Shown here in pieces: positions 3,181 through 3,404 of a stretch of DNA of 64,000 bases (the first letter of the stretch is position 1; each line of letters begins with the position of its first letter). Both the position numbers and the translations under genes were made by a program. The stretch is from Eledone cirrhosa (taxonomy: Eukaryota). Where the stretch lies: the NCBI GenBank assembly GCA_964016885.1, contig OZ024747.1:9362001-9426000 (forward strand), read 5' to 3'. Under the pieces are notes generated by a model. It did not search any database. It was not told the DNA's origin and was given only the letters and a program-made list of their open reading frames with translations.

Positions 3181-3404
3181 TCTTTGGTTTGTTTTTATCC
3201 TTCTATGTTGTTCACTTGTCCCCCTCGCTTTACGCGATTACTGGTCCCAATAACTATTTTTAGATTATTGCTCGCACCAACCTGAGGTATCTGATTTTTA
3301 ATGCGATGAAATACCAATGATGGTTGGAAAATCACTGACGAAGGACTATTTTTATCATATGTAACCCATGTGCAAACCACGCAGTATTCTTCTTTCTTCT
3401 CATA
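3181..3404 (+). mobile_element. Family E structured element in (TA)n; other copies at 5787-5895 and 6509-6628
   Basis: Three similar copies share GCGATGAAATACC...CACTGAYGARGGAC, each flanked by (TA)n. Confidence 0.8.

Follow-up and report, generated by a model that had tools for sequence, protein, structure and literature searches.

Introduction

The window analysed here is the whole stretch of 64,000 nucleotides of Eledone cirrhosa DNA presented above, and a short structured RNA is encoded in it more than once. The question that this locus raises is what kind of RNA this is. A preliminary description, made from the letters alone, saw a mobile RNA folded into a three-way junction around a kink-turn (K-turn), possibly recruiting a K-turn-binding protein, whose CUGAYGA word did not belong to an ordinary hammerhead ribozyme (HHR). 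The present analysis points with considerable confidence to a hammerhead after all: the element carries a complete hammerhead core in S-G-C block order, covarying stems I and III and a K-turn consensus, and by analogy with known hammerheads it is probably self-cleaving at the predicted site given in Table 1.

The S-G-C order is that of the type-SGC hammerheads (HRIMA-1 and its variants) reported by Eckert et al. 2023 (PMC10085705), where the linker is "typically three nucleotides". According to that report, type SGC was found in environmental data only, with none in genomes of known organisms, and its constructs cleaved in vitro, co-transcriptionally and without protein, at 0.007–0.19 per min. 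The same authors describe an "I" helix that is sometimes linked directly to stem III, though the ends lie far apart in the crystal structure, and they raise the idea of a helper protein; the words "kink" and "k-turn" do not occur in the main text of their paper.

The Element and Its Copies

Both copies noticed at first lie where they had been placed, and the features read from them (P1, P2, two helices at an internal loop, a 3-nt bulge, tandem GA/GA and a U.U or U.G pair) are present in the sequence. To these two copies a third has to be added, which is truncated at its 5′ end (Table 1). A pattern made of the conserved unpaired bases gives 2 matches in the window and 0 in 100 shuffles.

Table 1. 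Coordinates of the element and its parts in the window (position 1 is the first nucleotide of the 64,000).
Feature	Position	Strand	Details
Copy 1 of the mobile unit	3182–3403	+	5′-truncated 3′ part of a ~528-nt tandem monomer, (TA)n-flanked
Copy 1, predicted ribozyme	3244–3346	+	span of the preliminary description, confirmed in the sequence
Helix Z, 5′ side (staple strand; formerly P1)	3244–3247	+	pairs with 3343–3346; 94.7% of cells paired, 2/4 pairs two-sided
Hairpin P2 in staple strand	3248–3270	+	3248–3255 with 3262–3270; 97% paired, 4 of 7–8 pairs two-sided
Helix X, 5′ side (staple strand)	3272–3276	+	pairs with 3302–3306; 90.5% paired, 4/5 pairs two-sided
Helix Y, 5′ side (K-turn NC stem)	3277–3282	+	pairs with 3322–3327; 96.5% paired, 5/6 pairs two-sided
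K-turn, non-bulged strand	3283–3285	+	3n U, 2n G, 1n A
Block S	3286–3298	+	stem III strand 3286–3290 (U16.1 = 3290), H17 = C3291, stem I strand 3292–3298
Stem III (K-turn C-stem)	3286–3290/3311–3315	+	2/5 pairs two-sided
Predicted cut	between 3291 and 3292	+	by analogy with hammerheads
Stem I	3292–3298/3328–3334	+	6/7 pairs two-sided
Linker, stem I to helix X, 3 nt	3299–3301	+	TAA in 160/174 copies, a count partly fixed by the search pattern
Block G	3302–3315	+	helix X 3′ strand 3302–3306, position 11.1 = 3307, G12-A13-A14-A15.1 = 3308–3311, stem III strand 3311–3315
K-turn, bulged strand	3316–3321	+	L1–L3 3316–3318 (3-nt bulge), 1b G, 2b A, 3b U
Helix Y, 3′ strand	3322–3327	+	covariation
Block C	3328–3346	+	stem I strand 3328–3334, CUGANGA core 3335–3341 (CUGACGA), position 10.1 = 3342, helix Z 3′ strand 3343–3346
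Copy 3	5787–5894	+	5′-truncated inside the linker; block S absent; blocks G and C kept (GAAA 5795–5798, CUGAUGA 5823–5829)
Copy 2 (subfamily with ~634-nt monomer)	6507–6628	+	same predicted ribozyme at 6514–6615
Copy 2, core	predicted cut 6560/6561	+	GAAA 6577–6580, CUGAUGA 6604–6610, K-turn GA 6553–6554 and 6588–6589

The view of the element as a mobile structured RNA holds, as it is a high-copy mobile repeat with covarying helices. Copy 1 has at least 39 further genomic copies at 98–99% identity, and three disjoint core patterns give about 14,000 matches (11,642 + 1,744 + 725) in the genome of 3.0 Gb, against 1, 2 and 162 (165 in total) for the reversed-pattern controls. The copies are low-GC repeats with one hammerhead-type core per unit, arranged in tandem, with units of 470–640 nt whose length differs by subfamily and arrays of up to 16 units. 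Their 5′ ends are variable, and the 3′ end mostly lies ~70 nt past the ribozyme, in (TA)n.

Several other observations concern the repeat and its surroundings. One 16-unit array (L147, C1:81556000-81564300) has a period of 512–520 nt, and inverted neighbouring copies, as described for Penelope-like insertions, occur at five loci (L070, L098, L117, L161, L169). A CAACCACRCAG-like tail motif, 35–60 nt past the ribozyme, is common to subfamilies with otherwise different units (the 3384 region of the window; L051, L111, L153, L164); it is a candidate signal for the mobilising protein, and it is absent behind the 16 GIY-YIG ORFs examined. Units of ~615–630 nt (L129, L130, L151) hold a stop-free frame of ~210 codons in a pyrimidine-rich body, which is probably compositional. 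Elsewhere in the window, (TA)n runs enclose many fold-back inversions formed by other repeats (3961–4080, 4190–4370, 5180–5560, 7560–7870 and 8160–8400), and there are a G/T-rich satellite of ~30 nt (1–1620) and a long C/A-rich satellite with periods of 9, 69 and 70 nt and a GC skew near -1 (~46500–56000). Inside a different repeat, at 2356–2385, CUGACGA is followed by a short hairpin, with no GAAA in hammerhead register. A separate repeat aligned in 10 rows (L053, L084, L104, L111) has a motif that may resemble the HDV-like ribozymes of RTE LINE 5′ ends.

A Hammerhead Core in Non-Circular Order

In copy 1 the hammerhead parts follow one another from 5′ to 3′ as the predicted cut site, GAAA and CUGANGA, which is the non-circular order S-G-C. 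The remark that the CUGAYGA is not followed by GAAA was correct, and a conventional type I, II or III hammerhead is ruled out by the position of GAAA between the cut site and CUGANGA. The conclusion drawn from that remark, that the element is no HHR, does not stand, as the GAAA lies upstream and all the core nucleotides are there in S-G-C order. The core that defines type SGC, namely CUGANGA, GAAA and UH with A15.1-U16.1, is complete. H17 is A or C in 171/174 copies, and among 50 copies that were anchored on their 5′ half alone, 39 carry CUGANGA in exact register. The linker reads GAA in one of the old families (family A, below).

The base of stem II is where the element parts from its models. 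No stem II is found directly between blocks G and C, where at most one pair (10.1-11.1) could form, and this pair is not conserved: it is A-U in 109/174 copies and G.U in 25/174, A.A, A.C and C.A also occur, and C.C is present in 10 of 14 distinct metagenome sequences. In several families 10.1 and 11.1 each pair with a 5′ strand, called here the staple, instead. Because the 10.1-11.1 pair is not conserved, the core departs at the stem II base from every tested hammerhead, which counts against the ribozyme reading. With its stem II replaced, the element is best classed as an architectural variant of type SGC, and a new one, not as an ordinary member.

Helices, Covariation and Proposed Fold

The six-helix model was evaluated on an alignment of 19 subfamily copies, hand-picked among copies with intact core words because automatic clustering chained subfamilies together. 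In it 95.0% of 665 cells are paired and 23 of 35 pairs have changed on both sides, against 28–44% paired cells in slid controls; the shuffle control gave 0/500, which is not a probability, the rows being related. Stem I is paired in 7/7 positions in copy 1, and in copy 2 one of its pairs is swapped on both sides and one is G.U. This stem and helix X, which engage the 20-nt loop of the inner helix and the long 3′ bulge, had been missed when the element was described as a three-way junction, a description that does not hold. The helix P3 (YTCG/YGAA) of that description does not behave as a conserved one: 83% of its cells are paired in the 19 copies, its sole two-sided change falls at a gapped column, one pair is broken in 10 of the 15 rows with letters and another is G.U in 14/19. 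P3 may represent an inactive, alternative conformation in copy 1. The nested minimum-free-energy structure of copy 1 (-23.8 kcal/mol, z -2.1) coincides with the earlier picture and pairs the core G8/A9 away, which counts against the ribozyme reading; that of copy 2 (z -2.6) is without P3.

The proposed fold is organised by the 5′ staple strand, which would pair separately with both strands that normally form stem II, giving helices Z and X with P2 between them, and would then run into helix Y; its order would be Z, P2, X, Y, K-turn and stem III. In helix X the staple substitutes for the strand with which block G would otherwise form stem II, and the 3′ strand of helix Z comes right after nucleotide 10.1. 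In P2 of copy 1 A3264 is bulged, and the whole hairpin is absent from the second old family (family B). Helix Y would abut stem I at its far end and, through the bend of the K-turn, lead back into stem III, closing a knot. If X stands for stem II, helix Y would connect stem I and X at their far sides, as the I-II bridging helix does in type SGC (PMC10085705). For a monomer to fold in this way, stem III, the K-turn, helix Y and stem I would have to close into a tight ring, and this point also counts against the ribozyme reading.

The Kink-Turn and Its Variants

The alignment of genomic copies bears out the K-turn consensus, as GA/GA is kept while the flanking stems covary; the two stems had been labelled the wrong way round by K-turn convention, in which stem III is the C-stem. 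In copies 1 and 2 a 3-nt bulge is followed by G.A and A.G between two helices (in copy 1, 3284–3285 with 3319–3320), and the next pair, 3b.3n, is U.U in copy 1 and U.G in copy 2. GA/GA is present in 155/174 copies, a count partly fixed by search patterns that used two registers and missed one subfamily ("ACATC"), so that it overstates the conservation of the K-turn. In copies anchored on the 5′ half alone, the GA of the bulged strand is kept in 49/50. On the non-bulged strand, the G is kept in 19 rows and the A in 25 rows of each old family (27 rows in A, 26 in B). Among the 174 copies, 3b.3n is U.U, as in box C/D K-turns, in 105, U.G in 42 and A.G in 8, and L3 is U in 162. Copy 1 has C-G at -1b.-1n.

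Two subfamilies depart from the standard motif and keep the catalytic core. In "ATGTC" 2n is U in all 5 rows, which makes the K-turn non-standard; Kt-23 likewise has U at 2n (PMC5061560). In "ACATC" Watson-Crick pairs replace the GA pairs and a plain 3-nt bulge is left, with a compensatory change in the non-bulged-strand pairing between L164/L167 and L169. In LINE copies of this genome 2n is A, again a non-standard K-turn. The constant across subfamilies is the position of the bulge.

As described in PMC5061560, a K-turn has an included angle of 50 degrees, and those of box C/D type do not fold in ions alone, so that a K-turn of this type should need a protein or tertiary contacts. By the rules given there, the 3b.3n pair is predicted to fold in ions alone in 11 of the 14 metagenome sequences. 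The K-turn would be a fitting link from the bridging helix to stem III, and its role is most likely architectural; 15.5K/Snu13 may stabilise it. The subfamily in which a plain bulge stands in for the K-turn favours this structural role. The proposed recruitment of a K-turn-binding protein therefore survives in part: as a folding aid it is possible, given the frequent U.U at 3b.3n, but as the purpose of the element it is unlikely, because one subfamily lacks the K-turn and another has a non-standard one.

Old Families and Metagenome Relatives

BLAST recovered two old families, A (27 rows) and B (26 rows). The core words and both GA steps are retained in them, and helices I, III, X, Y and Z persist although they are built from other sequences. 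The most independent test of the pairing is the scan of metagenome contigs, in which the search pattern fixed only unpaired bases, spacing and one base pair. At least 17 of the 20 free pairs form in 17/43 matches, and 0/258 slid scores reach 16. These structured matches represent 14 distinct sequences that share 33–43 of 71 letters with copy 1, and P2 and Z are mostly present in them. The other 26/43 matches show no such pairing and were left out of the covariation table. About 10 of the 17 structured hits lie directly behind a LINE ORF. Viral contigs gave 3 matches, in each of which stem I is paired in 2/7 positions, and these were taken as chance.

In two metagenome contigs the ribozyme fold occurs in a different setting. 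L401 and L427 have in common a reading frame that does not encode an RT and that matches Bravo_FIGEY weakly in Pfam (E 0.008); the fold follows it at a distance of 713 nt and 364 nt, respectively. The contigs may come from related organisms in which the fold sits in a cellular gene's 3′ UTR.

Retrotransposon Partners

With the ORF of one metagenome locus (L425) as query, LINE remnants are found in the Eledone genome, and 18/30 loci carry the same wiring 73–211 nt behind the match. Each LINE copy has one ribozyme fold behind the ORF, with a 6-bp stem III in this genome. Pfam returns only a weak zf-RVT hit on the LINE ORF, and these RLE-type non-LTR retrotransposons may belong to "Hero". Three loci (L457, L460, L463) represent a second LINE subfamily, whose tail apparently has GAAA before CUGAUGA with other spacing.

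The other partner belongs to the Penelope-like elements. Craig et al. 2021 (PMC8557442) describe Naiads as lacking a canonical HHR, some being flagged "HHR_half_core", with a (TA)n insertion bias, and they report those of cephalopods as remnants. The Octopus consensus in their supplement, Naiad_Ovul, bears that flag. On inspection by eye, S-G-C order, staple and K-turn are all present at its 3′ end, and its P2 loop resembles that of the window copies. The supplement record that precedes it has, again by eye, the same S-G-C, staple and K-turn ending and a P2 loop like that of the element.

In the Eledone genome, no RT ORF was found attached to the young subfamilies, and no autonomous element with their tail was found. 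Among 50 GIY-YIG loci, whose long ORFs carry the nuclease at the C-terminus, none has the ribozyme attached and 3 have separate insertions nearby. A Naiad-like stem III motif gives 8 matches, which are old decayed copies. The (TA)n targeting, the inverted neighbours and the P2 loop suggest a Naiad-like origin of the element.

Proposed Folding, Cleavage and Life Cycle

The ribozyme reading leads to the question of whether one unit can tie the knot alone. It has to be considered that it cannot, and that units act as a domain-swapped dimer of tandem neighbours, or cut only once 15.5K/Snu13 has folded the K-turn; this would refine the hammerhead reading rather than exclude it, and it is judged rather unlikely. 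The units do stand in tandem, and amphibian retrozyme HHRs are reported to act as dimers (PMC7229834). The prevalence of U.U at 3b.3n, together with the inability of box C/D K-turns to fold in ions alone, points in the same direction, as does the link of the "I" helix to stem III, which Eckert et al. found hard to reconcile with the crystal structure and for which they raised a helper protein. However, the LINE copies have a single ribozyme fold behind the ORF, most of the metagenome 3b.3n pairs (11/14) are predicted to fold without protein, and the published SGC constructs cleaved co-transcriptionally in its absence.

The 5′ ends of one subfamily were inspected for traces of cleavage, in 91 copies whose anchor lies 3′ of the ribozyme; they come from the first 100 of 589 matches, with 4 tandem neighbours left out. 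In this set no pile-up of 5′ ends is seen at the cut, with 2/91 within 2 nt against 1.0 expected (P = 0.27), which again counts against the ribozyme reading. The 20 nt that follow the cut on its 3′ side contain 12/91 ends against 4.0 expected (P = 9e-4, uncorrected), and the next-best 20-nt window has 8; this excess may reflect A/T microhomology with (TA)n, or else stalling of the RT. Most copies (71/91) run across the cut, and 20/91 reach a full unit upstream. The distribution fits a mainly circular or multimeric template, without demonstrating cleavage.

The read-through bears on a second alternative, according to which the fold derives from a ribozyme but is now recognised by a retrotransposon protein, the RNA itself not cleaving. 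The copies that cross the cut with no pile-up there, the loss of the 10.1-11.1 pair and the location of the motif at the 3′ end of elements, where RT binds, speak in its favour. A ligated circle, however, also predicts read-through; families without any helix sequence in common retain the catalytic nucleotides, including A or C at H17, and two unrelated classes of retrotransposon carry this fold, which fits an activity independent of the protein. A recognition structure is judged improbable.

By analogy with animal retrozymes, the life cycle would begin with tandem transcripts cut once per unit, whose monomers would be ligated into circles. The RT/endonuclease of a retrotransposon would then act in trans, copying the circles into (TA)n from ~70 nt 3′ of the ribozyme and across the ligated cut.

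Comparison with Known Systems

The element resembles type SGC (PMC10085705) in its S-G-C order, core nucleotides, covarying stems I and III, linker of ~3 nt and, if helix X stands for stem II, a helix that would bridge stems I and II on their other sides. It differs from type SGC as reported there in residing in an animal genome, with its thousands of core matches; in its 5′ staple, which pairs with the G and C blocks each and so forms a four-way junction (three-way in family B); and in its bridging helix, joined to stem III on both strands by the K-turn.

With the metazoan non-LTR retrozymes (PMC7229834; Li et al. 2026, 10.64898/2026.07.22.740005) it shares its non-autonomous nature, low-GC tandem repeats with one hammerhead per unit and thousands of dispersed copies. 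[quoted passage not shown] The 2026 preprint derives retrozymes from Penelope-like elements. Among the latter, Naiads (PMC8557442) share the (TA)n bias, the tandem and inverted copies and, in Naiad_Ovul, the fold of the 3′ end, the difference being that no Naiad ORF was found attached to the subfamilies of the window. RLE-type LINEs have the same wiring directly behind the ORF, but they are autonomous and carry one ribozyme fold per element.

Among K-turn RNAs, the leads to snoRNA, SECIS and U4 came to nothing in Rfam: no family reaches its gathering score anywhere in the 64-kb window, and at E<=10 there are 76 hits in 2200–7900, with none over copy 1 and no snoRNA, SECIS or U4 match. In a box C/D snoRNA, a 5′ box C and a 3′ box D form a terminal K-turn. 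Such a snoRNA was rejected here, as the D-like strand comes first and the C-like one second, the 3′ CUGA belongs to the hammerhead core and Rfam has no hit over copy 1. A SECIS has its GA quartet under an apical helix of 10–12 bp with an AAR loop. It was also rejected, as the apical helix here (the C-stem) has 5 bp, its loop is used in two pseudoknots and Rfam has no hit. The K-turns of box C/D snoRNAs and U4 (PMC5061560) are like that of copy 1 in the 3-nt bulge followed by G.A and A.G, the C-G at -1b.-1n and the U.U at 3b.3n; unlike them, the K-turn of the element is embedded in a predicted ribozyme and replaceable by a plain bulge, with no arrangement of 5′ box C, 3′ box D and guide. The last alternative, a non-catalytic mobile RNA with a box C/D- or U4-like K-turn that recruits 15.5K, SBP2 or another protein of the L7Ae family, is very improbable: it accounts for the standard K-turn features of copy 1, including its C-G and U.U pairs, for the U at L3 and for a GA/GA count that the search patterns partly fixed, but it leaves unexplained the CUGANGA, GAAA and UH in hammerhead register and the covariation of stem I, and two subfamilies without GA pairs or with U at 2n keep the catalytic core and no snoRNA, SECIS or U4 is matched in Rfam.

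In the open literature, which leaves most subscription journals outside, searches for hammerhead with kink-turn and retrozyme, and from 2015 on for k-turn with retrotransposon, returned no paper, and "type-SGC" was found in Eckert et al. only. Within that literature, the stapled, K-turn-closed variant was not found in print.

Implications

A wider reading is put forward tentatively, as one that may well prove wrong. The stapled stem II, the knot closed by a K-turn and the missing 10.1-11.1 pair could define a distinct hammerhead class, missed by all HHR descriptors, which across animals would serve Naiads, RLE-type LINEs and the retrozyme-like parasites of both as a hidden ribozyme. Its U.U K-turn might make 15.5K/Snu13, a host protein of snoRNPs, a requirement for cleavage and hence the switch for circle formation and retrotransposition.

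For type SGC, the K-turn is a candidate answer to how the I-II helix reaches stem III, left unexplained in the account of Eckert et al. (PMC10085705), and the point is now testable. For Naiads, Craig et al. (PMC8557442) concluded that they proliferate without an HHR, and at least the Octopus consensus carries a predicted one that their descriptors did not see. This natural variation would indicate that the base of stem II is replaceable by a junction, which changes how to search animal genomes for hammerheads.
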